Assembly (NCBI GenBank): GCA_964636085.1
Contig: CAZWPQ010000029.1
Span: forward strand, 1 to 27,510
Direction of reading: 5' to 3'
Source: an uncultured Nitrososphaerota archaeon
Lineage (GTDB): Archaea; Asgardarchaeota; Njordarchaeia; Njordarchaeales; Panguiarchaeaceae
DNA: 27,510 nt
The notes below the pieces were generated by a model. It was not told the origin of the DNA, searched no databases, and saw nothing but the letters and a program-made list of their open reading frames with translations. Of this stretch, positions 3,001 through 26,304 are shown piece by piece. Within the stretch, counting starts at the first letter, position 1, and each line of letters starts with the position of its first letter. The position numbers and the translations under genes are program-made.

Positions 3001-5633
3001 CTCCCTACATAGAATTTGTAAATATGACATATTATGACGATGATAACGATGGGTATTGGGAGCCAGAAGAATATCTCTATGTCGACATTACCGTTATGAA
3101 TAGTGGCAATGGTTCTGCAGTAAGCATATGGATATATGGATATGATAACTACTCCGAGGCGGATATATATACCCCCGGAAGCATTCCAGCTATGGATCCT
3201 GGCGATAGCAGAACATTTACGGTGGAGCATTATGCATATTCTAGTGCGACCTCTGGGACTGTTGTACATGCGACTATATACATCTACTACTACGATATAG
3301 ATTTGAAACATTTGTATACAACAATTATAGAGTATGACCTCCTCATAATGGCTGCTGGGTTGAATATAAATTATATAGAGGTTCCCAGCTACGCTATTGT
3401 GGGAACCACAGTAATGCTTAATGCATCAGTAACTTATGGTGGGCCCGATAACACAACAACAGTAACAATTAGGTGGCTAGCAAATGGAAGCATAATTTGC
3501 GATCATACTTATGTAATCAACATAAATGAGACAATAATAGATAGTTGCTACTGGACTCCCAGCGACTATGGCCACTACAAGATCGAAGTCATTGTTGAGG
3601 ATCCCAATGTTACTTTGAATTCCTCCAAATGGATACCGACAGGATATAGATTACTTTCTGGCCCTATAGACCCATCCGTTGGACAGTATCATAACTATTA
3701 CCTATATGAGGTCGATCCCTACGACCCGACCATAATATTGGATTACATTGGATGGTTCAATATTTCATATGTGGATAGAATATCGACAGATCTCATAAAT
3801 GCCACAAAGACAGTATCCTATTATGGTAGCTATGATTATTACTGGATGACGATAAATACAACAGATAGACATATTGTTGAAGGTACAAGTTGGTGGCTAG
3901 ACAGTTATTATATTCTATGGTATCCACTAGATTGCCAAGTAGGCGACATAATCACATATTGGAGAGGCTATGGAGTTATTGTTGATATCGACGACATAAA
4001 TGTTATGGGACAAACATTCTCGGCATATAGACTAGTATATTTGGACCTCCCAATGTACATGGATATTGCCTGGATAGATGCCGACACGAATATCGTTCTT
4101 AATGTTCTTGAGAAGAGCGATTATTGGGCATATAGACTTGAGTTAAAGGATACAAATATATTTACTATTATCGATACACAGCCACCAGATATAAATATAT
4201 ATAGCCCAACTAATAACTCTTACGTGGGCACATCTGATGTGACCATCTATTGGTATGGATATGATGCATCTGGGATAGACCATTATGAAGTGAAATTAGA
4301 TGATGGTTCTTGGATAAATGTTGGGTTATCGACAAGCTATACCTTCTATAACCTGCAATGCGGGGAACACATCGTATATGTAAAGGCCATAGACAATAAT
4401 AATAATGTAGGAGTCGTATCCATCATATTTACTGTAGATACCACTCCGCCTAGCATTTCAATTACGGCACCACTAAACAACTCCGAGGTAGGAGACACAT
4501 TAAGTGTGTACTGGGAAGCATCGGATGATATATCATATGTCTTCGAGGTAAAGGTCTATCTGAATGACAGTCTTGTCGCTACATTTGTTAAAGATGTAAA
4601 CATGACCGACCATCTAAAATTAACTGGGCTACAAACATCAAAATATTACGTTATAAAGGTAGTAGTATATGATGCTGTTGGATTGTTCTCCTGTAAACGC
4701 GTCATTATAAAGACAAATGCATATGGAGTCTTCATAACATTTCCAGGAGATGAAGCCATGATCAATGTTACATATTTAAGACTCATATGGAGCTATGGGG
4801 GCTCACCGGATAACTTTACTATAAGGGTGAACGGATCATTGTATGCTTTTCTTTTGGCCCCAGCTGATAACGTTAATATTACTGGACTATACGAGGGTGC
4901 ATGGACAATAACTATTACTGCAAAGTATAAAACGGGCACTTATACAGATAGCGTGATGGTTTATGTTGACCTGACACAACCAACAGTCACTATAACATAT
5001 CCTCTTAATGGAGATTTCCTCAATACCTCCGATGTAACATTGACATGGAATATGGATGACCAGCTGACTGGAATAGACTACTGCGAGATTATCGTAGATG
5101 GCTCTGTGTATAATGTTGGTGCTTTAACAGAATATACAATATATGGGCTAAGAGAGGGACTACATACGGTAACCGTTAAGGTATTTGATAGGGCAGGAAA
5201 CTCGGACTCAGATATGATAACCTTTACCATCGACCTTACACCTCCAACAATAGTAATTATATCACCTGAAAACAACACAGAAATCAACACTAATACAATA
5301 ACCATATCGTGGGACATAACCGACAACTATGGCATAGCATACATTAAATACAGGGTGGATCAAGGCGTATGGAATAATGTAGGAATAGTAGATGGGGTAA
5401 CCATAGAGCTCTCCGATGGAACACATAGTATATCGATAGTGGCAGTAGATTTGGCTGGAAATACCAAAATTGTCACTCTCGTTATAACCGTATCGACAGG
5501 GATGAAACTCGGATATTTACTCCCATTGGTAATCGCGGCTGCATTGGCTAGCGTAATTATTATTATGTTCTACAGATCAAGAAAGAGAAAAATAGAGTTC
5601 GGGTATGGGTTTGAGGAGGAGTTTTATCTATAG
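18..5633 (+). CDS. Large membrane-anchored S8 (subtilisin-family) serine protease with CARDB/Ig-like domains; probably 5'-truncated by the window edge
   Basis: Intact catalytic triad motifs VIAILDTGID (Asp), HGHGTHCAGIAAG (His), SGTSMATPHVAG (Ser), and oxyanion AAGNSG. Repeated C-terminal Ig-like units (DTQPPDINIYSP, DTTPPSISITAP, DLTQPTVTITYP, DLTPPTIVIISP). C-terminal TM LLPLVIAAALASVIIIMFY followed by RSRKRK. The frame is open from position 3 and no signal peptide is visible, so the true start is likely upstream. Confidence 0.93.
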   Translation: MALKTNKKLDSLSVKGPKYQVLSLSGLRYIDYVWHNGRVIALEDTDTVTNFDSFYQHKIWSYGIHPLLNNSTKIIEANKLWGLGYNGSGIVIAILDTGIDKNHPDLDDLDDNPLTNDPKVIYEVSFVDYDYDGIPDEDPMDYHGHGTHCAGIAAGTGEASGYTYVGVAPGAYLMNVKVLDSSGGGYWDWIISGIEYATFGPDGIANTGDEADIISMSLGGAGSPRDPVSMAVNNAWDYGIIVVVAAGNSGSQYYTVASPAGASKVITVGATDKSGNLASFSSRGPSIELRMKPDIVAPGVSIIAPRANNTYMGSVINDYYTSASGTSMATPHVAGASALLLQAFPTSSNNEIKVAIMSSAVDLGYPSYAQGAGLLDVYAAYCFLNGTWNTVPVSVGERSAYEGSGGGLVTIENNWYVASFDSYLASDYFYYKPVAADNVFYESFAIRYGTGSGTYFYWFFDLLVESPLSIIYSDENATVAFGSLLTPDNSLRIKFYLFSTNEKWLNAYFFIEDISVGVSWVALYEGIDADVYYSASNNQGIYNSTYDAIYQYYVPNPIVYFGFSAVNHSNAHHLSSCGDMWDAIDMDTLNNANSYYGDCGMALKWNTTKIATAGSVHFQVVWGVGDNADDFLASVNEGKAIDFSQVESYLTSTKTVLKVVSIGYMIPMYTGDNTFNITISNLGNATAYNVNVSIFIDNSYTYSTTLDIPGSSSITLQTSISIIIPGVHIFEVFVIYNDSIVDDLKRPIIINGPRDIIVTPIELNSYPLSIIYGGQRVPYNLTIVLGEDLSDISIGITYPSDIILTANIINLDNTTGQYFVNLVIETNASMSPGTYAVVIDVIESSVVVYRLNILFEIVGMLPYSYSYSVYYYEESQYLGTSDYDGVIEGDEDVGIDISISNDGNISFVPTLVFGSTNDSDILIWDTMGTGYSVSPGYSDSPDDVDCYIMPRHPNGTLWMMGLIYLSNGTSYPYNLGVPVDYFELNISVRGRINGTPYIEFVNMTYYDDDNDGYWEPEEYLYVDITVMNSGNGSAVSIWIYGYDNYSEADIYTPGSIPAMDPGDSRTFTVEHYAYSSATSGTVVHATIYIYYYDIDLKHLYTTIIEYDLLIMAAGLNINYIEVPSYAIVGTTVMLNASVTYGGPDNTTTVTIRWLANGSIICDHTYVININETIIDSCYWTPSDYGHYKIEVIVEDPNVTLNSSKWIPTGYRLLSGPIDPSVGQYHNYYLYEVDPYDPTIILDYIGWFNISYVDRISTDLINATKTVSYYGSYDYYWMTINTTDRHIVEGTSWWLDSYYILWYPLDCQVGDIITYWRGYGVIVDIDDINVMGQTFSAYRLVYLDLPMYMDIAWIDADTNIVLNVLEKSDYWAYRLELKDTNIFTIIDTQPPDINIYSPTNNSYVGTSDVTIYWYGYDASGIDHYEVKLDDGSWINVGLSTSYTFYNLQCGEHIVYVKAIDNNNNVGVVSIIFTVDTTPPSISITAPLNNSEVGDTLSVYWEASDDISYVFEVKVYLNDSLVATFVKDVNMTDHLKLTGLQTSKYYVIKVVVYDAVGLFSCKRVIIKTNAYGVFITFPGDEAMINVTYLRLIWSYGGSPDNFTIRVNGSLYAFLLAPADNVNITGLYEGAWTITITAKYKTGTYTDSVMVYVDLTQPTVTITYPLNGDFLNTSDVTLTWNMDDQLTGIDYCEIIVDGSVYNVGALTEYTIYGLREGLHTVTVKVFDRAGNSDSDMITFTIDLTPPTIVIISPENNTEINTNTITISWDITDNYGIAYIKYRVDQGVWNNVGIVDGVTIELSDGTHSISIVAVDLAGNTKIVTLVITVSTGMKLGYLLPLVIAAALASVIIIMFYRSRKRKIEFGYGFEEEFYL

Positions 5634-16390: not shown

Positions 16391-19300
16391 TTGGCTCCTA
16401 AGCTGATAAGAATATTAAGGAATGGATTAAGAAAAATTAAGGAGAAAGTATCAGGCTTTTTTGAGAGACATCCAACACTCACGAGGATTCTGGTATTTAC
16501 GCTTAGCTTCCTGCCCTTTGTCCCCTCCATAATCCAAACAGCAAAATCTAGTGCGATAGGGTCAGTACTCGTTAAAAGAAGAGAATCCATAGAGCAGGGG
16601 CAGATCGATGACGACTTTTGGGGAGATATATCCACGATACTGAACGATAGAAACATTGTAGAGATAACAAAGTTTATAAGAATGGCACTAGAGAGGATCC
16701 TAGAAGAGCGAAAATTGAAGGAAATTATTGGCGAGGCCGTGGCTGGCCTTGCAACAAGGGATGATGTCGAGCTCTTGCGCTCCGAGTTATTCCTCCTGAA
16801 GGAATACATGGGGAAGAATCTTGAGGATCTATACACAAAATATAGGGCCATGGTGGAGTCTTCAATAGACCTAATAGAAAACTACCTATCTGTGCATACC
16901 GAGATATCGACAATACCATATATTATACCCACAGCCTTCATGAGGTATGTTGAGGATCCATCTACAGGGATAAAACTTATCGAAAGAACCACAAGCATTA
17001 TCGAGAAATATGTTAAGCTTGCGGCTCCGGAGAAACTGGAGGAATATAGGACATGCATAAAGAATGACATTAGCATGCTTTTCCAATATCTCTTCGATGG
17101 CGATCTTACTGGGGCATTAGATGTGGCCAGAACCATTGAGAATAGAGCCAAGGATATACTAGGGGAGAAGGCCTCATTAATAATGGATGTTATCTATGCC
17201 GCAGAGGGAGAAATAAGAAAAATCTTGGGTTCGATTAGGAACAAGAAGCAGATATTAGACGCAATAGATGAATTAAGGGCACAACTCAAAAAACACAGAG
17301 CAGAACCCGAACTAATAAATAGCCTCAATGCCAGCATAATTAGAGTAGAGGGCATCCTCGAAAAATTCGAGACCACACTAAGAACCGTAGAGAACATAAT
17401 CGAGACAAACCTAAAGAACCCACCCATGATAAGTCCCCTAACATACTCGAGAAACCAGGTAAACAACGCAATTATCCTAGCCAAAAAACCGGGCGACCAA
17501 GAATTCAGCCAGGAACTCCACGTGGATAGAGGAAAAGTCCAGAGGAAAATAATGGAGCATGTACAAAAGGAGACAAGAAAAAACATACTCATAGTAACAG
17601 GCAGAGTGGGTGTAGGGAAGACATGGCTACTATCATATATAGCCAAGTATTCACTCGAAAAGCTAAATAAAATAACATTCCTCGTACCACTAGGCAAAAT
17701 AGATGACCCAGAGGAATATATTAGGCAGTTGCTCTATAAAATAAATCCAAAATATGTAAGCCTGGAGACACAACTCGAAGAAATATCCAACAAATACAAT
17801 GGGACAATAATAATATTGGATGCACTGGACGAGCACAAGCAGGACAAATACAGAATAATAAGACTGTTATCAAGAATGCGGGGAATACCAAAGACAAGAG
17901 TGATCATGAGTACTTGGGAGGGAACAATAAGGCTAAGCCCCGCCATACAGAGGGAGCTACAAGATCTTGAGAGCCATGGCTACCTAGAAACAATAAGGAT
18001 AGGGGGATTCACGTCGTCTGAGATAAAACAGGCACAGCAAAAATATGGGACAGAAATCCCTAGGAGCCTCATCGAACTCACAAAGGAGTACCCGTTCTTG
18101 ATAAACATAGTAAGAAAACTTAAGCAAAAGGGAGAGCAACCAGAGATCCATACACCAGAGATATATGACGAAATACTGATGAGGCTAAATATTGATCCAC
18201 AGAGCGTGGAGGTTGCGGAAACAGGAAAACTGTTCAACATAGTCGCTACAGGCCAGATTGATGCGTCAACATTCATACCGTACCAAGACAGAAACGAGAA
18301 GGTGGAGACAATATTCCATACCCACGAGATCCCTAGAAGATTGCTGGAGGCGGGAATAATCACTAAGATGGGGAGAAAATATAGATGTAAAAACCCTTGG
18401 ATAACAGCATACCTAATAGCTAAGGGCATACTGGAGGGAAGAAGGGAGGATATACAGAAACCCCAAACAGAACCACAGATCCTGAGTATACCACAATACG
18501 TGGAGCAGAAAACAAACTATAGAAACAAAACCATCGTAGCGGAAATAGCCAAGAGAATCGGAGAAAAAACAGCACAAATAGAGTACATAGAGGCATCCAC
18601 ACAACACAACCACTATGAAGCGGCGGGGGCAACAGCAATTATACATGGCCTCCTACACCTAGCACCCGGCCTAATACAGCAGGCACATCAGATCCTTCAA
18701 AATACACCACCAACAAAAAGGCTTATTCCCGAAGGAATTATAGAGGAGGCCTATAGAAATGAACAAATAGATGTCCTAAGGGTCATAGGTAGGCAAATAT
18801 TGGAGGCACTTAAAACAAGGGCCACATGGAATAAAACGATACAACAAATACAACAAATAACCCCGGCACCCACAATACCAACAACAGCGCCAGCAATAAC
18901 CATAAACCAGATAAACATACAGATAGAGGAACAAACAATAACACTATATAGGGGAGAAACAGCAATAATTGGGAGAATACCTAAAAGCCAAATACAGACC
19001 CTAGAAGACGCCTACAGACTAGCAGCCCTGATCACGAGAAGGGACGGAAACCAACAACTAGTAAAACTAGACATTACAAATCCACTAATAACGAGGCTAC
19101 CACCAGACAAGAGGGGACACGTAAAAATCCAGCTAACACAAGAAGGACAAATAATAGTGATGGATCTAGGATCAACAAACAGGACGGCAATCAATGGAAA
19201 AATAATACCGCCGAACAAAGAAACAACAACAAGACCAAACACAGAAATAGTTTTAGCTCCAGAAACAACAAATGCGGTAAAAATAAAACTAAGAACATGA
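16391..19300 (+). CDS. STAND/NACHT-like P-loop NTPase with N-terminal helical domain and C-terminal FHA domain
   Basis: Walker A ILIVTGRVGVGKT and Walker B TIIILDALDE. Downstream RVIMST...IGGFTSSEI...PFLI pattern resembles STAND NTPases. FHA motifs GETAIIGR...ITR..GH..IIVMDLGSTNRTAING. TTG start follows GGTG. Confidence 0.82.
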   Translation: MAPKLIRILRNGLRKIKEKVSGFFERHPTLTRILVFTLSFLPFVPSIIQTAKSSAIGSVLVKRRESIEQGQIDDDFWGDISTILNDRNIVEITKFIRMALERILEERKLKEIIGEAVAGLATRDDVELLRSELFLLKEYMGKNLEDLYTKYRAMVESSIDLIENYLSVHTEISTIPYIIPTAFMRYVEDPSTGIKLIERTTSIIEKYVKLAAPEKLEEYRTCIKNDISMLFQYLFDGDLTGALDVARTIENRAKDILGEKASLIMDVIYAAEGEIRKILGSIRNKKQILDAIDELRAQLKKHRAEPELINSLNASIIRVEGILEKFETTLRTVENIIETNLKNPPMISPLTYSRNQVNNAIILAKKPGDQEFSQELHVDRGKVQRKIMEHVQKETRKNILIVTGRVGVGKTWLLSYIAKYSLEKLNKITFLVPLGKIDDPEEYIRQLLYKINPKYVSLETQLEEISNKYNGTIIILDALDEHKQDKYRIIRLLSRMRGIPKTRVIMSTWEGTIRLSPAIQRELQDLESHGYLETIRIGGFTSSEIKQAQQKYGTEIPRSLIELTKEYPFLINIVRKLKQKGEQPEIHTPEIYDEILMRLNIDPQSVEVAETGKLFNIVATGQIDASTFIPYQDRNEKVETIFHTHEIPRRLLEAGIITKMGRKYRCKNPWITAYLIAKGILEGRREDIQKPQTEPQILSIPQYVEQKTNYRNKTIVAEIAKRIGEKTAQIEYIEASTQHNHYEAAGATAIIHGLLHLAPGLIQQAHQILQNTPPTKRLIPEGIIEEAYRNEQIDVLRVIGRQILEALKTRATWNKTIQQIQQITPAPTIPTTAPAITINQINIQIEEQTITLYRGETAIIGRIPKSQIQTLEDAYRLAALITRRDGNQQLVKLDITNPLITRLPPDKRGHVKIQLTQEGQIIVMDLGSTNRTAINGKIIPPNKETTTRPNTEIVLAPETTNAVKIKLRT

Positions 19301-19503: not shown

Positions 19504-19824
19504 CTATATTTCCTCCAGTTCTTGTGGATCTATAAATCTTAGGTACCAATTATTCAGTTGTTTCTGAGTTATTATGTGTAGCTCTATCGGAGCGTCTATT
19601 GATTTATAGACTTCGGTCATGATCTCGTACTTCATATCTATTTTCTCCGTAATAACCAATATATCTATATCGCTCGTAGCGGTAAATTTGCCCCTAACAA
19701 CAGAACCAAAAACAAATACTCTGGCCCTAGAATCAAATTTTTTCACTATCTCTTTGACCTTCCTCGCGATTCTCCTATAATCCCTTAGCATATCAAGAAC
19801 GCTACTGCCGTATCTTCTCGACAA
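19504..19824 (-). CDS. Minimal nucleotidyltransferase (MNT), antitoxin of a HEPN-MNT pair
   Basis: VFVFGSVVRGKFTATSDIDILVI (GS...DxD motif); overlaps the HEPN stop codon region. Confidence 0.92.
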   Translation of the reverse strand: MSRRYGSSVLDMLRDYRRIARKVKEIVKKFDSRARVFVFGSVVRGKFTATSDIDILVITEKIDMKYEIMTEVYKSIDAPIELHIITQKQLNNWYLRFIDPQELEEI

Positions 19825-20194
19825 GGCTTCTGAACACCTCTACAACAAACCTATACAGATCCCTAACCTCCTTCTCCTCATAGACATATGGGAGATATCT
19901 TGATGCGATATAGGCCTCCTCAAGTCTTGCTATATAGTGGATATATCTTGTATCCTCAACAAGACTCAAGATACTCTGATCAAATTCTCCTAGCTCCCTT
20001 ATTAGTCTCCTTAGAGAGTGAGTGCGTGGATAGCTACCTCGCAGGACAAGTAGTTTATACTTTATTATCAATTGACAATATTGCTCCAAATTAAACATTG
20101 CCAAGTCCCATTCGCCCTCCTCCATAAGTCTTTCCGCATTCTTAAGGAAGGCTTCTGCACGCCTTTTCAAAATCTCAGCCTCCTCAAACGCCAA
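19802..20194 (-). CDS. HEPN domain protein (COG2250-type), putative toxin of a HEPN-MNT pair
   Basis: RAEAFLKNAERL..G.WDLAMF..EQ..QL..K...YPRTHSL..L...YIASRY signature; directly upstream of the MNT gene. Confidence 0.92.
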   Translation of the reverse strand: MAFEEAEILKRRAEAFLKNAERLMEEGEWDLAMFNLEQYCQLIIKYKLLVLRGSYPRTHSLRRLIRELGEFDQSILSLVEDTRYIHYIARLEEAYIASRYLPYVYEEKEVRDLYRFVVEVFRSLVEKIRQ

Positions 20195-20545: not shown

Positions 20546-22714
20546 CTAGATTATAACATCGATAAAACTAAACACCCTAAGCATATAGTCCCAACTTCCC
20601 GTTGCTAGAAGTTTACCATCTGGAGAAAAAGCCACTGACACCACACCACCTACGTGTTTATACTCAAATATCCTTCTCCATGAGTTTACCTCGAATACTC
20701 TAAGCATTTTATCCTTGCTTCCAGTTGCTAGAAGTCTACCATCGGGCGAAAATGCCACAGAATACACGGGGCTTTTATGTTTATATTCGAATATTATCTC
20801 CCACGACCCAATTTTGAATACTCTAAGTATACCGTCCCAACTTCCAGTTGCGAGATATTTATTCTCTGGTGAGAAAGCAACAGAAAAAATATCGTACTCA
20901 TGATTGTGTTTATATATAATCCTCCATGTAGTAGTTTCAAATACTCTAAGCATATTATCTCTACCTCCCGTTGCTAAATATTTACTATCAGGCGAAAAGG
21001 ATAGGGATAATATTGCAGCTCCATGTTTATGTCTATATACTTTTTTCCACGAACCAATCTCGAAGACCCTAAGTATGTTATCAGCGCATCCCATCGCTAG
21101 ATACATATTGTCTGGCGAGAATGCTACAGAACATACGGAGCCTCCGTACCCCTTTATAAATATTGCTGTCCATGTAGTAGTTTCAAATACTCTAAGCATA
21201 TTATCTCTACCTCCCGTTGCTAAATATTTACTATCAGGCGAAAAGGATAGGGATAATATTGCAGCTCCATGTTTATGTCTATATACTTTTTTCCACGAAC
21301 CAATCTCGAAGACCCTAAGTACATTGCCCCAGCTTCCAGTTGCGAGATATCTACCATCAGGTGAGAATGCTACGGAGAGCACGGTACCTTCACACTTATA
21401 CTCGAATATTCTTTCCAATATTGTTTCTACTTTATTGTGGGCACGCAATATCTTTTGTATTGTTTGTGGTGTTGTTTGGTATAGTTTTGCTATTTTCTGC
21501 ACTATGTCTTGTACTAATTGTCCTCTGTATTTTTCTGTTGTTTGTAGTATATGTTGGAGCGTTATTTTTGGGATTGCTGTGTCTCCAATGATTTCTATGT
21601 TTGTTGGTGGCTCTATGTTTATTGTTCCAAGCGTCACTATGGTTCCTGTTTTCCCTATTATTTGTAGTGCCTGTAGTATTAGCTGTGGTTTTCTCAGTGT
21701 GTGTGCTAGTGGTGTTCCTTTTGTAGCAAGTCTTATTGCCTCCACTATTAGTTCTTGTGTTGGGTTGTCTAGGTAGTAGATTTTTTCTCCTATGGCTACT
21801 ATGTCTTGTCTTGGTATTTCTCTTATTATATCTACTACCGTTTGCGGTTCTAGGCCCGTGTTTTCCGCTATTTCTCCTATTGTTGTGTATCCTCTATTCT
21901 TGTATGTTTCTAGGATTCTCAATACCCTCTCTATGGGTGGTAGTAGGTCTATACCTATTGGTATTGATTGTCTTTCTGTAGCTTTTTTTGTGGCTATTTT
22001 CAGTGCTTTCTTTAGGAGCATTGTGTTTGGCCATCTCTTTTCCTGTTCTGGCTGCAGACACTTGTCTATTACTTTTCTTATGGGTTCTGGGGTTTTTCTG
22101 TATGGCTGGTGTTCTCCCAGGAGTATTTCCGCCTCCCAGTCCTCTGTGAACGCCTGTTTTCCTTCATATATTTCGTATATTATTGTTCCGAGCTGGAATA
22201 TGTCTGTCTTCTCGCTTATTTCTCCATATTCCCCATATATTTGTTCTGGGGCGGCATATTTTGGCGTGTATGTCTTTTTTCCCATGCTCCTTAGTGCTGC
22301 ACCTTCGAAGTCTATTATTCTTATTTTCCCGTCTTCCCCAATGAGTATGTTGTTTGTGTTTAGGTCTCCATGGACTATCCCCCTTCTATGCATGCATTCT
22401 ATTGCCTCGATGATCTGCATTATTATGTTCCCTGCTTCCGCCAGAGATATTTTCGGTATTATTTCCCTGAGTGTAGTTGGTGCATATTCGAATATTAATG
22501 TTGGGTTTTGTTGTGTTGGTTTGTTGAGGAGTCTTATTATTCCTGGACAGTCCGCTAGTTTTTCCAGAATCCTTGCCTCAAGCAGTAATAGATTCATTAT
22601 TTCTGGCTTTACTGTCTCCTCGATCCTCTTGACAACGTATTTTTCTCCATCCTTCTCTATGAGGAGTACCGATATGCCTAATGGGCTCCTCTTCAGAACC
22701 CTAAGAACCCTCAT
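20546..22714 (-). CDS. Hanks-type Ser/Thr protein kinase - winged helix - 7x WD40 repeat protein (kinase A)
   Basis: YVVKR (beta3 Lys), LLEARIL (alphaC Glu), HGDLNTNN, IIDFE, YAAPEQ, KTDIFQLG. wHTH-like TTIGEIAENTGLEPQTVVDII. Seven 41-aa WD40 units (SVAFSPDG.YLATGS.D..LRVF). Likely start is ATG 22714, aligning with the paralogue (ORF track starts 22756). Confidence 0.92.
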   Translation of the reverse strand: MRVLRVLKRSPLGISVLLIEKDGEKYVVKRIEETVKPEIMNLLLLEARILEKLADCPGIIRLLNKPTQQNPTLIFEYAPTTLREIIPKISLAEAGNIIMQIIEAIECMHRRGIVHGDLNTNNILIGEDGKIRIIDFEGAALRSMGKKTYTPKYAAPEQIYGEYGEISEKTDIFQLGTIIYEIYEGKQAFTEDWEAEILLGEHQPYRKTPEPIRKVIDKCLQPEQEKRWPNTMLLKKALKIATKKATERQSIPIGIDLLPPIERVLRILETYKNRGYTTIGEIAENTGLEPQTVVDIIREIPRQDIVAIGEKIYYLDNPTQELIVEAIRLATKGTPLAHTLRKPQLILQALQIIGKTGTIVTLGTINIEPPTNIEIIGDTAIPKITLQHILQTTEKYRGQLVQDIVQKIAKLYQTTPQTIQKILRAHNKVETILERIFEYKCEGTVLSVAFSPDGRYLATGSWGNVLRVFEIGSWKKVYRHKHGAAILSLSFSPDSKYLATGGRDNMLRVFETTTWTAIFIKGYGGSVCSVAFSPDNMYLAMGCADNILRVFEIGSWKKVYRHKHGAAILSLSFSPDSKYLATGGRDNMLRVFETTTWRIIYKHNHEYDIFSVAFSPENKYLATGSWDGILRVFKIGSWEIIFEYKHKSPVYSVAFSPDGRLLATGSKDKMLRVFEVNSWRRIFEYKHVGGVVSVAFSPDGKLLATGSWDYMLRVFSFIDVII
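20923..21321. repeat. Exact 153-bp direct repeat (20923-21075 = 21169-21321) within the WD40 array of kinase A
   Basis: Base-by-base identity; spacing of 246 bp equals two 123-bp WD40 units (WD2 and WD4 nearly identical). Confidence 0.95.
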
Positions 22715-23418
22715 TGCGTCGTCCCAGAGACACCAGGAATACATATAGAAATCCATTATAAAAAAGTTGTGGAGACAAAATATTGTTTCCCTAACTCCAT
22801 AGATTTGGTGTGGCTGTCTGCCATTTTTAACTCAAATTTGCATATATGTAAAGGTCTCTTGAGTTTATTGGGGAGGCTGTGGGGAGCCTAATGAGAAAAT
22901 TAAGGACCCTCACAATAAACCCTTCCAAGAACAGGGAAGTTATACTTGCCGAAATGAATGGGAAAAAAGTCGTAGTGAAGCAACCCATAGGGACTGTTAG
23001 CCCAAGCGAAATAAACATATTTCTTGGCGAGGCAGAAATACTAACGAAAGTACAGGAATGCCCCGGAATAATCAGACTTATGAACCCCCCAGGCAATATA
23101 CCAATGATAATCTATGAGTATGCACCAAAGACACTAAGAGAGATAATACCAAGCCTAGGGCCGGACCGAGCAAGTGAGATAATAAGACAGATAGTGGATG
23201 CAATAGAATGCATACACAATAGGGGAATAATCCATGGTGATCTGAACCCAGACAACATACTCATTGGGGAAGACGGGAAAATAAGAATAATAGACTTCGA
23301 AAGCTCGGCAAGAAGAAATCTTGGCCAGAGGACATTCACACCAAAGTATGCGGCCCCAGAACAAATAAGCAGCGAGTATGGAGAAATAAGCGAGAAGACA
23401 GACATATTCCAGCTCGGA
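22187..23418. repeat. Inverted repeats formed by the two divergent kinase domains
   Basis: 22304-22353 is the exact reverse complement of 23252-23301 (50 bp). 22187-22228 is the exact reverse complement of 23377-23418 (42 bp). Confidence 0.9.
22715..22890. promoter_or_regulatory. Divergent promoter region shared by the two kinase-WD40 genes
   Basis: 176-bp gap between head-to-head ATGs. Minus-strand TTTTATAA near 22755-22762. GGGGAG RBS before ATG 22891. Confidence 0.5.
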
Positions 23419-24441
23419 GCAATAATATATGAAATATACGAGGGAAGGACAGCATTCACTGAGGAATGGTATAACGAGATAACACAGGGAAAACATAGAC
23501 TATTTCAAAAAACACCACCACAGATAAGAGAGATAATAGATATGTGCCTAGAGCCAGACCCGGAGGATAGACCAACAATAAAACAGCTAAAAAGAATGCT
23601 GAAGATAGCTATGACGGCACAACTAGCAATAACAATAGACATGAAAAAACCGCCAATAGAGAGGGTGAGAGAATACATTGAAAAAATAATAGACAAGCCC
23701 ATAGCAATAGGAATAGAAAAACTAGCCCAACAACTAGGACTAACACCACAACAAATAAATGCAGCAATAAACATACTTACAGCAGAATACCCCATCGTAA
23801 TCATAGAACAAAGAATAGTCACACCAAAAGCACTAATAAGAATAGCGACAAAGACACAGAAGCCCCTAGCAGAAATGCTCGCAGGGAAAATGCTGCCAAC
23901 AACATACTGGCAGGCAATACTAAAACAGATAGAGGATATGGGAACAGTAGTACCATTCGGAGACCCACTAGAAACAAGAGCGGCAGAAAAAACAGAAAAA
24001 ATAAAAGCAAACGTAGATATTATAGCGGGGTATGCAGTACCAAAAACAACACAACAAACAATAAGAAAATACCTCCAAAACAGAACAATAACACAACAAC
24101 TAATACAACAAACAGCAACAGCACTAAACATACCGCCACAAATAATACAACCAACAACAAACCCACCACCAACAACAATATTCGAGCACGAGCACGGAGA
24201 CGCTGTGTTGTCTGTGGCCTTCTCACCAGATGGCAGACTCCTAGCAACAGGAAGCTACGACAAGATGCTCAGGGTGTTCGAGGTTGGGTCATGGAGAACA
24301 ATACAAGAGCACAGGCACAGAGGCGTTGTGTTGTCTGTGGCCTTCTCACCAGATGGCAGACTCCTAGCAACAGGAAGCTCGGACAAGATGCTCAGGGTGT
24401 TTAGTGCTGTGTTTTTGGGTGTTATTCGTGGTTTCATATGA
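22891..24441 (+). CDS. Hanks-type Ser/Thr protein kinase - winged helix - WD40 protein with only 2 WD40 repeats (kinase B)
   Basis: VVVKQ, LGEAEIL, HGDLNPDN, IIDFE, YAAPEQ, KTDIFQLG. wHTH-like IGIEKLAQQLGLTPQQINAAI. Two units VLSVAFSPDGRLLATGS.DKMLRVF. ATG 22891 follows GGGGAG (ORF track starts 22879). Confidence 0.9.
   Translation: MRKLRTLTINPSKNREVILAEMNGKKVVVKQPIGTVSPSEINIFLGEAEILTKVQECPGIIRLMNPPGNIPMIIYEYAPKTLREIIPSLGPDRASEIIRQIVDAIECIHNRGIIHGDLNPDNILIGEDGKIRIIDFESSARRNLGQRTFTPKYAAPEQISSEYGEISEKTDIFQLGAIIYEIYEGRTAFTEEWYNEITQGKHRLFQKTPPQIREIIDMCLEPDPEDRPTIKQLKRMLKIAMTAQLAITIDMKKPPIERVREYIEKIIDKPIAIGIEKLAQQLGLTPQQINAAINILTAEYPIVIIEQRIVTPKALIRIATKTQKPLAEMLAGKMLPTTYWQAILKQIEDMGTVVPFGDPLETRAAEKTEKIKANVDIIAGYAVPKTTQQTIRKYLQNRTITQQLIQQTATALNIPPQIIQPTTNPPPTTIFEHEHGDAVLSVAFSPDGRLLATGSYDKMLRVFEVGSWRTIQEHRHRGVVLSVAFSPDGRLLATGSSDKMLRVFSAVFLGVIRGFI
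24204..24401 (+). repeat. Near-identical 123-bp-period WD40 tandem repeat in kinase B
   Basis: 24204-24278 versus 24327-24401 match at 73 of 75 bases; the two mismatches fall in one codon (TAC/TCG, Y/S in GS-x-D). Confidence 0.95.
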
Positions 24442-25751: not shown

Positions 25752-26075
25752 TTATTCTCTCTTTATAGCTATGGTCGTATTATTTTTGGTGGCTATCTCT
25801 AGGGCTTTACTAAATTGTGACTTGACGAGCTCGAGCATATTTTTTGGGTCATTTAATTGCTCCAAATATATTATTGGATGGATATTAATGTATCTTAGAA
25901 AGTCGGAGTCGCATGTCAAGAGAACAGCTTGTTTCTCTTTCGCAAGCTTTAGGAGTTCTTTATTTTTTATGCCTCTAAGCGACGGATCTTCCGCTATAAA
26001 CATTACATGATGACCGATTCCTCGGAGATATCTGACTATTACTCTAGGTACATTTTCGTCGGCGATAATATACAT
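25752..26075 (-). CDS. DUF5615 / Mut7-C-type PIN-like toxin (VapC45-like)
   Basis: IIADENVP...LRGIGHHV...A...AVLLTCDSDF; directly downstream of DUF433. Confidence 0.88.
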   Translation of the reverse strand: MYIIADENVPRVIVRYLRGIGHHVMFIAEDPSLRGIKNKELLKLAKEKQAVLLTCDSDFLRYINIHPIIYLEQLNDPKNMLELVKSQFSKALEIATKNNTTIAIKRE

Positions 26076-26076
26076 G

Positions 26077-26304
26077 CTAGGAAACCTTTACCTCCGCCAA
26101 TAGTTTCTCCCCCTTTTTCAGTTTCTTGTATATGGTCTCGATTATATGGAGTGAGACCGATGGGTATTCCTCATGAACCTGCTTCGGGGTATAGCCATTC
26201 TTCAACATCCCAATTATTACGCTTACTGGAACCCTTGTCCCCCTAATCACAGGCTTTCCATGGCAAATTTCTGGGTCAGAAACAACGAATACCTCATCAC
26301 TCAT
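26077..26304 (-). CDS. DUF433 antitoxin (VapB45-like)
   Basis: VVSDPEICHGKPVIRGTRVPVSVIIGMLKNGYTPKQVHEEYPSVS signature; GGGGGT RBS. Confidence 0.93.
   Translation of the reverse strand: MSDEVFVVSDPEICHGKPVIRGTRVPVSVIIGMLKNGYTPKQVHEEYPSVSLHIIETIYKKLKKGEKLLAEVKVS

Follow-up and report, generated by a model that had tools for sequence, protein, structure and literature searches.

Organization of the kinase A gene

The 27,510-nt window analyzed here, which is the whole of contig C29 (CAZWPQ010000029.1) of a metagenome-assembled genome (MAG) from an uncultured archaeon (2.41 Mb, 102 contigs, 83% complete), encodes a protein kinase with a C-terminal WD40 propeller, hereafter kinase A, and a head-to-head paralogue, kinase B. 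We focus on the kinase A propeller, on the divergence between its blades (A1 to A7) and on a segment of the array that is present twice. The gene is described below from the open reading frame (ORF); the NCBI call starts four codons downstream and comprises 732 aa.

20546..22756, minus strand: kinase A gene (ORF, 736 aa), encoding a kinase, a helix-turn-helix (HTH)-like linker and seven WD40 blades
22010..22657, minus strand: protein kinase domain, aa 34-249 (Pfam PF00069, E 1.1e-32)
21410..21994, minus strand: linker of ~195 aa, aa 255-449, with weak, sub-threshold helix-turn-helix matches
20549..21409, minus strand: seven 41-aa WD40 units A1-A7, in register, 123 nt each, from aa 450 to the C-terminus
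21287-21409, minus strand: blade A1, 41-aa/123-nt unit
21164-21286, minus strand: blade A2, 41-aa/123-nt unit
21041-21163, minus strand: blade A3, 41-aa/123-nt unit
20918-21040, minus strand: blade A4, 41-aa/123-nt unit
20795-20917, minus strand: blade A5, 41-aa/123-nt unit
20672-20794, minus strand: blade A6, 41-aa/123-nt unit
20549-20671, minus strand: blade A7, 41-aa/123-nt unit

In a five-sequence alignment of the family, K43, H129-G130-D131, N136, D149 and the APE motif are invariant, and by its catalytic Lys, Asp and Asn and its metal-binding Asp kinase A is predicted to be a Hanks-type Ser/Thr protein kinase. The motifs themselves are atypical, with HGD in place of HRD and DFE in place of DFG, and the Gly-rich loop is degenerate to the point that none is recognisable. 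The linker diverges from the one common to kinase B and other family members.

The count of seven 41-aa blades proposed in the initial annotation is borne out by the seven in-register units and by seven WD40 stretches recognised by Pfam PF00400 (E 3.2e-64; 211 bits, cut-off 27), and the residue strings listed there for the blades (EGT/GAA/GGS and so on) match the sequence exactly. Among the tetrad positions, His (column 6 of the unit) is present in five of the seven blades, and Thr (column 24) and Asp (column 28) each in six, while the Trp position (column 34) is Phe throughout (7/7) and GH reads K/N-H. Kinase A thus departs from the full set of four hydrogen-bonding residues (Asp, His, Ser/Thr and Trp) and the GH/WD dipeptides, a common WD40 feature without which membership of the family is possible.

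A single-sequence AlphaFold2 prediction of the propeller was unusable (pLDDT 41), and the run was therefore repeated with 31 stand-alone WD40 homologues (a 32-sequence alignment), yielding a model with 28 strands, a mean pLDDT of 97.4 and a pTM of 0.93. Its best fold match in the PDB, as determined using Foldseek, is the WD40 domain of PkwA, a bacterial kinase (5YZV; TM 0.92/0.94, rmsd 1.5 Å over 288 residues). In the model the array opens with a strand d, followed by the first a-b-c set, and has the seventh strand c as its last element, hence a count of exactly seven full blades closed in the usual manner; the predicted fold is a closed propeller of seven four-stranded blades, the last of which is completed by the opening strand d. 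The faces of the blades were assigned from the strand order of the model and published WD40 geometry, not from measured distances. The elements of the 41-aa unit in the AlphaFold2 model, with the mean pairwise mismatch between blades where calculated, are as follows.

Columns 40-41 and 1-5: strand d, mismatch 0.69
Columns 6-9: d-a loop, mismatch 0.82
Columns 10-15: strand a
Columns 16-20: a-b loop, mismatch 0.36
Columns 21-26: strand b
Columns 27-29: b-c turn, mismatch 0.64
Columns 30-35: strand c
Columns 36-39: c-d loop, mismatch 0.63

An exact 153-nt tract is present at two non-adjacent positions

The reported exact duplicate at non-adjacent blades is real: positions 21169-21321 are base for base identical to 20923-21075 over 153 nt, at an offset of 246 nt, i.e. 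two blades.

21169..21321, minus strand: tract copy 1, the end of A1 and nearly all of A2 (exact 153-nt match)
20923..21075, minus strand: tract copy 2, the end of A3 and nearly all of A4 (exact 153-nt match)
21076..21168, minus strand: unique 93-nt spacer, the last 5 nt of A2 and the head of A3, without close relative among the other blade heads

Each copy is composed of the last 35 nt of A1 (or A3) and 118 of the 123 nt of A2 (or A4). The tract starts within codon 30 of A1 and A3, spans the common 'LRVFEIGSWKK' and ends 5 nt short of the blade end, where A2 has CAGCA and A4 has GGATT. At the background identity of ~62%, the chance of a run of 153 matches is ~1.7e-32. Immediately before the tract the similarity is lost, with A1 and A3 identical at just 51 of 88 nt, and the head of A3 is no closer to any other blade head of kinases A and B (48-54/88 identical). 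The 93-nt spacer occurs once in the genome.

The A3 head consequently excludes a simple two-blade tandem duplication and has no recent donor. Such a duplication would have made the heads of A1 and A3 alike and cannot create a new head. In the simplest history, the ancestor already had seven blades, and a single conversion tract replaced the end of one blade and most of the following one by sequence from two blades away. We accordingly favor, of the two processes put forward in the initial annotation, recent gene conversion as the best fit, unequal crossover and tandem duplication being disfavored by the A3 head. The duplicate is most readily explained as a single recent tract of gene conversion within the gene. 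A1/A2 may have been copied onto A3/A4 or the reverse, a close orthologue being absent from the collections searched. By rendering two blades identical, one conversion of this kind reduces the diversity among the blades rather than raising it.

Divergence among the kinase A blades

Between the unique blades of kinase A the pairwise DNA identity is 52-70%; A2/A4 (96%) and the two kinase B blades, B1/B2 (80%), are the close pairs. Synonymous differences between the unique blades (pS) range from 0.53 to 0.78 with a mean of 0.66, near saturation, and blades with the same amino acids differ in the codons used for them. Selection on the protein fold, not concerted evolution, thus accounts for the near-constant scaffold, and concerted evolution of the array in general is ruled out by the saturated synonymous sites outside the tract. 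'Repeat homogenisation', as the array had been described, does not extend beyond the tract. Nonsynonymous differences (pN) amount to 0.12 in the a/b/c core; their means are similar for the top-face columns (0.48) and for those of the c-d loop and strand d (0.42).

Columns with a mean pairwise mismatch of at least 0.6 make up 20 of the 41. On the top face these are 6-9, 11, 26, 27 and 29, while 11 of the 20 fall off that face (columns 3-5, 40 and 41 in strand d; 19 and 20 in the a-b loop; 36-38 in the c-d loop; 30 and 35 in strand c). WD40 blades carry a bulge motif, (V/L/I)-R1-R2-(V/L/I), with top-face hotspots at R1-2, R1 and D-1 (PMC3419727). In kinase A, R1 is column 11, R1-2 column 9 and D-1 column 27, which are among the most variable of all, with mismatches of 1.00, 0.93 and 0.80, respectively. 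The columns singled out for ligand-face variation in the initial annotation are thus the published hotspots, which the strand order of the model and the published geometry assign to the top face; the expected clustering of variable columns on one face held only in part, given the 11 columns elsewhere.

As a control, within-protein profiles were derived for 85 unrelated WD40 proteins from sequence searches, each with at least six usable blades. The kinase A profile follows that of the control (Spearman 0.63, p 6e-5), and columns 7, 8, 9, 11, 27, 29 and 37 rank at the top in both. The pattern is therefore a general WD40 signature and by itself no evidence of diversifying selection. Internal identity over all 41 columns is 0.54 for the seven blades and 0.53 for the six unique ones; over columns 9-35 it is 0.64, in the top 13% of the 85 comparison proteins. 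In a published grading of WD40 repeats by internal identity, with cut-offs at 0.4 and 0.7, highly repetitive propellers are those at 0.7 or above (PMC5587647); kinase A is 'moderately repetitive' (0.4-0.7), not 'highly repetitive', with the measure used here not being exactly that of the published grading. The analogy drawn earlier to the fungal HNWD receptors HET-E and HET-D does not hold for kinase A, in view of the saturated synonymous sites and the generic WD40 variability profile.

A five-blade form in a second assembly

Inspection of long reads or related genomes had been suggested as a check on blade number and order; between two assemblies the blade number differs. The 90% protein cluster of kinase A has two members, the NCBI call (732 aa) and P0002 from JGI/IMG (594 aa, on a 3484-bp contig), with seven and five blades, respectively. 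P0002 equals kinase A from aa 61 on, the first residue aside, minus 82 aa that correspond to exactly two blades. As far as the sequences tell, this is the expected product of recombination between the two tract copies, and a real deletion allele and an assembler collapse of the tract-spacer-tract loop (k-mers <153) are about equally likely as its origin. The same second assembly holds P0007, which equals kinase B save for R481G, the first loop residue past the His of the second blade. Both differences between the assemblies thus fall within the WD40 arrays, which account for ~29% of the residues; this is suggestive and rests on two events.

Three points speak for a real seven-blade form: the spacer is unique yet must join the tract at both sides, seven blades close the modelled propeller, and further exact intragenic repeats of 154-201 nt stand unbroken in the assembly. 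Exact direct repeats of 154-197 nt at C59:2485/2779, C37:57/201 and C32:17809/18070 lie in surface-protein and TSP3-type repeat genes, so that the kinase arrays are not the only place where long exact repeats occur. Contigs C73 and C74 of the same genome (G000) are 99.8% identical over 5 kb, with a WD40 protein on each, hence the MAG holds redundant or strain-variant contigs.

Kinase B and the kinase family

22879..24441, plus strand: kinase B, head-to-head paralogue of kinase A with two WD40 blades, 50% identical in kinase and linker
24178-24300 and 24301-24423, plus strand: the kinase B blades, nearly identical in core DNA (core pS 0.06), with exact runs of up to 53 nt
22187..22353, minus strand: part of the kinase A catalytic core with exact blocks in kinase B (sequence comparison)

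Two exact blocks are shared in inverted orientation by kinases A and B, one of 50 nt (22304-22353 = 23252-23301) and one of 42 nt (22187-22228 = 23377-23418). Among identical residues, codon identity between the two genes is 80-86% at aa 120-195 and 23-50% nearer the N-terminus. This pattern indicates gene conversion between the catalytic cores, and conversion would therefore act there too, not being aimed at the ligand face. Exchange between the A and B blade arrays was considered and rejected, the longest common run being 12 nt. The second half of the first kinase B blade is like A6 (18/21), its first half is equally like A1 and A6 (14/20), and the tail of the second blade resembles A7; these resemblances are compatible with, though no proof of, the loss of five blades from kinase B by an old in-register deletion. 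Two blades are found also in P0007 and in P0011, a 44%-identical relative from another source.

The best outside relative of the kinase and linker is L020, whose contig is labelled 'Candidatus Njordarchaeota archaeon isolate GB_136', and its sequence equals that of L013 from G003, a genome of the same genus as the genome of the window. The Njordarchaeota lineage is placed among or near the Asgard archaea, its position being debated in the literature. L020 carries an exact 46-nt duplicate in its adjacent blades 4 and 5 (4012-4057 = 4135-4180) in an array that is otherwise diverged, by all appearances an independent partial-blade conversion.

The kinase-plus-linker family is small, about six clusters among 1.84 billion representatives, with blade counts of 0, 2, 2, 4, 7 and at least 6; in one member leucine-rich repeats (LRR) take the place of the blades. 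In members with few blades the blades are very alike and differ mostly at columns 7-9, 11, 27 and 29. Kinases of the same family bear other sensors, namely LRR in P0127 and L019 (G000 C46) and TPR in L009 (G000 C38) and L012 (G002 C26), and P0123 is without any repeat domain. A scan of genome contigs with a kinase-plus-linker profile returned one family member, L020, the rest being generic bacterial kinases; a word-based search with just the linker recovered nothing but kinase A itself; and a propeller-only search gave no close variants, the best matches being 26-41% identical. The metagenome scan yielded one distant locus only, with records of the own or the nearest genome possibly excluded.

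A further paralogue differs from kinase A in the state of its array.

G000 C7:42407-45087, minus strand: C7 kinase paralogue with a WD40 array of 120-nt units and a 100-N gap at C7:42888-42987

The assembly broke at this gap. In the part that follows, blade 1 matches blade 3 at 120 of 120 nt and blade 2 matches blade 4 as far as the stop, in an ABAB arrangement. The two blade types are 6 nt apart in four neighbouring codons, with D/Y at D-1, R/N at D+1, K/R and one synonymous change, and the array contains an exact 201-nt repeat at 240-nt spacing. Judged from these sequences, the C7 array is truly homogenised, a picture like that of the HNWD receptors and of the amplified propeller WRAP, and the kinase B array is partly so.

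Neighbourhood of the kinase genes

16391..19300, plus strand: 969-aa protein, comprising a P-loop NTPase of the NACHT type (aa 400-552) and an FHA domain at the C-terminus (aa 908-955), from a domain search
19504..20194, minus strand: pair of HEPN (19802-20194) and nucleotidyltransferase (19504-19824) genes, between the NACHT-FHA gene and kinase A
25752-26304, minus strand: DUF5615 (PIN-like) and DUF433 pair, downstream of kinase B

FHA domains bind phosphothreonine, and the kinases may thus plausibly be linked in function to the NACHT-FHA protein, the latter being a candidate phospho-reader. Both small gene pairs flanking the kinases are of the toxin-antitoxin type.

Discussion

Based on the divergence of the blades, the predicted fold and the position of the exact tract, we propose that kinase A probably represents a kinase-HTH-like linker-WD40 protein with an old, differentiated seven-blade propeller, in which one recent conversion tract has been laid down. 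The blades would share a scaffold held by purifying selection on the fold, while their loops would vary as in any asymmetric WD40 propeller with one particular partner, and the top face presumably serves to bring a partner protein or a substrate to the kinase. One recent conversion of at least 153 nt would then have acted between the end of blade 1 with blade 2 and the end of blade 3 with blade 4, likely leaving blades 2 and 4 with the same surface residues. The two exact copies would in turn serve as substrate both for in-register recombination and for assembly collapse, and either accounts for P0002 without exactly two blades.

Several points weigh against this proposal. The column statistics are weak with only six independent blades, and the exact identity of the tract copies may be overstated, due to bubble-popping in short-read assembly. 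The blade count, seven as opposed to five or nine depending on the turns round the R-B-R loop, rests on the assembler, and, as no close orthologue was found in other genomes, neither the tract's donor and age nor any selection specific to the lineage is measurable.

An assembly artefact, in which a wrong loop traversal, merged similar copies or a strain chimera gave the duplicate or the blade count, is improbable in our view. The MAG is incomplete and fragmented, the independent assembly has five blades, redundant contigs are present (C73/C74) and the related C7 array is interrupted by the run of Ns; against this, reads must connect the genome-unique spacer to the tract at either end, the in-frame arrangement yields exactly seven blades and a closing strand in a model of pLDDT 97, the other exact repeats of 154-201 nt are unbroken, and copies a few bases apart would still require a recent conversion. 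It is very improbable that a five-bladed array, the JGI form being ancestral, gained two blades by a 246-nt tandem duplication or unequal crossover. The offset of exactly two blades and the existence of P0002 would be in agreement with such an amplification, yet a tandem duplication cannot create the A3 head, which at 51/88 to that of A1 has no closer relative, and seven diverged blades are present also in the distant family member P0030; the step from five to seven blades is rejected on the 48-54/88 identity of the A3 head to every other head.

The alternative closest to the initial annotation is an HNWD-like diversification, in which the propeller is a fast-evolving recognition module whose blades are reshuffled and whose top face is under positive selection for new specificities. 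The conversion tract, the seven and five blades in two assemblies, and R481G in a loop residue after the blade His, which is the sole other difference across both kinases, are in line with this; so are the C7 units, identical or 6 nt apart in four neighbouring codons including D-1 and D+1, the two P0011 blades, which differ at columns 7, 11, 27 and 29 only, and the alternative WD40, TPR or LRR sensors on the paralogues. For kinase A, however, synonymous sites are saturated between blades, every second variable column or so lies outside the top face, the variability profile is the generic WD40 one, a single tract is seen and its outcome is two identical blades, and the five-blade form may be an assembly collapse. 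We consider this diversification unlikely. A HET-E-like homogenised, hypervariable and specificity-generating module is not supported for kinase A, for which no evidence of evolving new specificities was found in the propeller, and is a possibility for the family as a whole. Along these lines, the kinase A tract and the difference between five and seven blades would be glimpses of a process at work across the family, in which recombination-prone sensors (WD40, TPR, LRR) on the expanded Ser/Thr kinase set of this archaeon would form a fast-evolving, immune-like recognition repertoire, perhaps read through phosphothreonine binding by the NACHT-FHA protein, a view to which we give only a small chance. 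If true, a kinase would stand where the fungal HNWD receptors have NACHT, and if C7-type arrays, truly homogenised and variable only in binding-face codons, are a recognition repertoire in an archaeon from among or near the Asgard group, this would bear on the age of kinase- and NLR-type surveillance, for which kinase A alone is insufficient.

Under the proposed origin, an old propeller with one young tract, kinase A is a clean natural case of partial-blade gene conversion in an otherwise differentiated propeller. With the matching two-blade deletion form in the second assembly, it provides one data point on propeller remodelling. It also calls for caution in the annotation of repeat proteins in MAGs, where blade counts may be artefacts.

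Comparison with known systems

In the HNWD family of Podospora anserina, repeats are up to 100% identical within and between genes owing to concerted evolution (PMC1805685). Kinase A resembles HET-E, HET-D and the other HNWD proteins (PMC1805685, PMC2873952) in the exchange of repeat sequence, there by gene conversion or unequal crossing-over, in differences in repeat number, here between two assemblies, and in the location of key variable residues on the top face. In contrast to them, it has a kinase in the place of NACHT, the NACHT hit being in a separate neighbouring gene (16391-19300), its repeats are at 52-70% DNA identity instead of up to 100%, positive selection is not demonstrated, and there is no array exchange with the paralogue, as the longest A/B blade run is 12 nt.

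Recently amplified, highly repetitive WD40 propellers are represented by WRAP (Npun_R6612, PDB 2YMU; PMC6805158, PMC9218822, PMC5587647). Kinase A shares with it consensus-like 'SVAFSPDG..LATGS.D' blades, with 2YMU the best sequence match among solved structures (E 1.9e-83), the concentration of remaining variation at the hotspots, and the presence of blade numbers other than seven in the family. The two differ in that synonymous differences are saturated between the blades of kinase A and absent in WRAP, only one tract, at two-blade offset, being young in kinase A, and in that the internal identity of 0.54 is below the highly repetitive range. WD40 fragments of two and four blades are able to assemble into eight-bladed oligomeric propellers in vitro (PMC6805158); the short arrays of the family therefore need not be artefacts.

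The closest architectural counterparts are prokaryotic Ser/Thr kinase-WD40 proteins such as PkwA of Thermomonospora curvata (PDB 5YZV; PMC6113231), as surveyed previously (PMC5587647). PkwA and kinase A both combine an N-terminal Hanks-type kinase and a C-terminal seven-bladed WD40 propeller in one chain, and a sequence search of solved structures matches the two at E 5e-41. Kinase A is set apart by its archaeal host, the ~195-aa HTH-like linker, 'VF-E' in place of the WD dipeptide and a tiny kinase-plus-linker family. Taken together, kinase A belongs with the known prokaryotic kinase-WD40 proteins that show repeat recombination.

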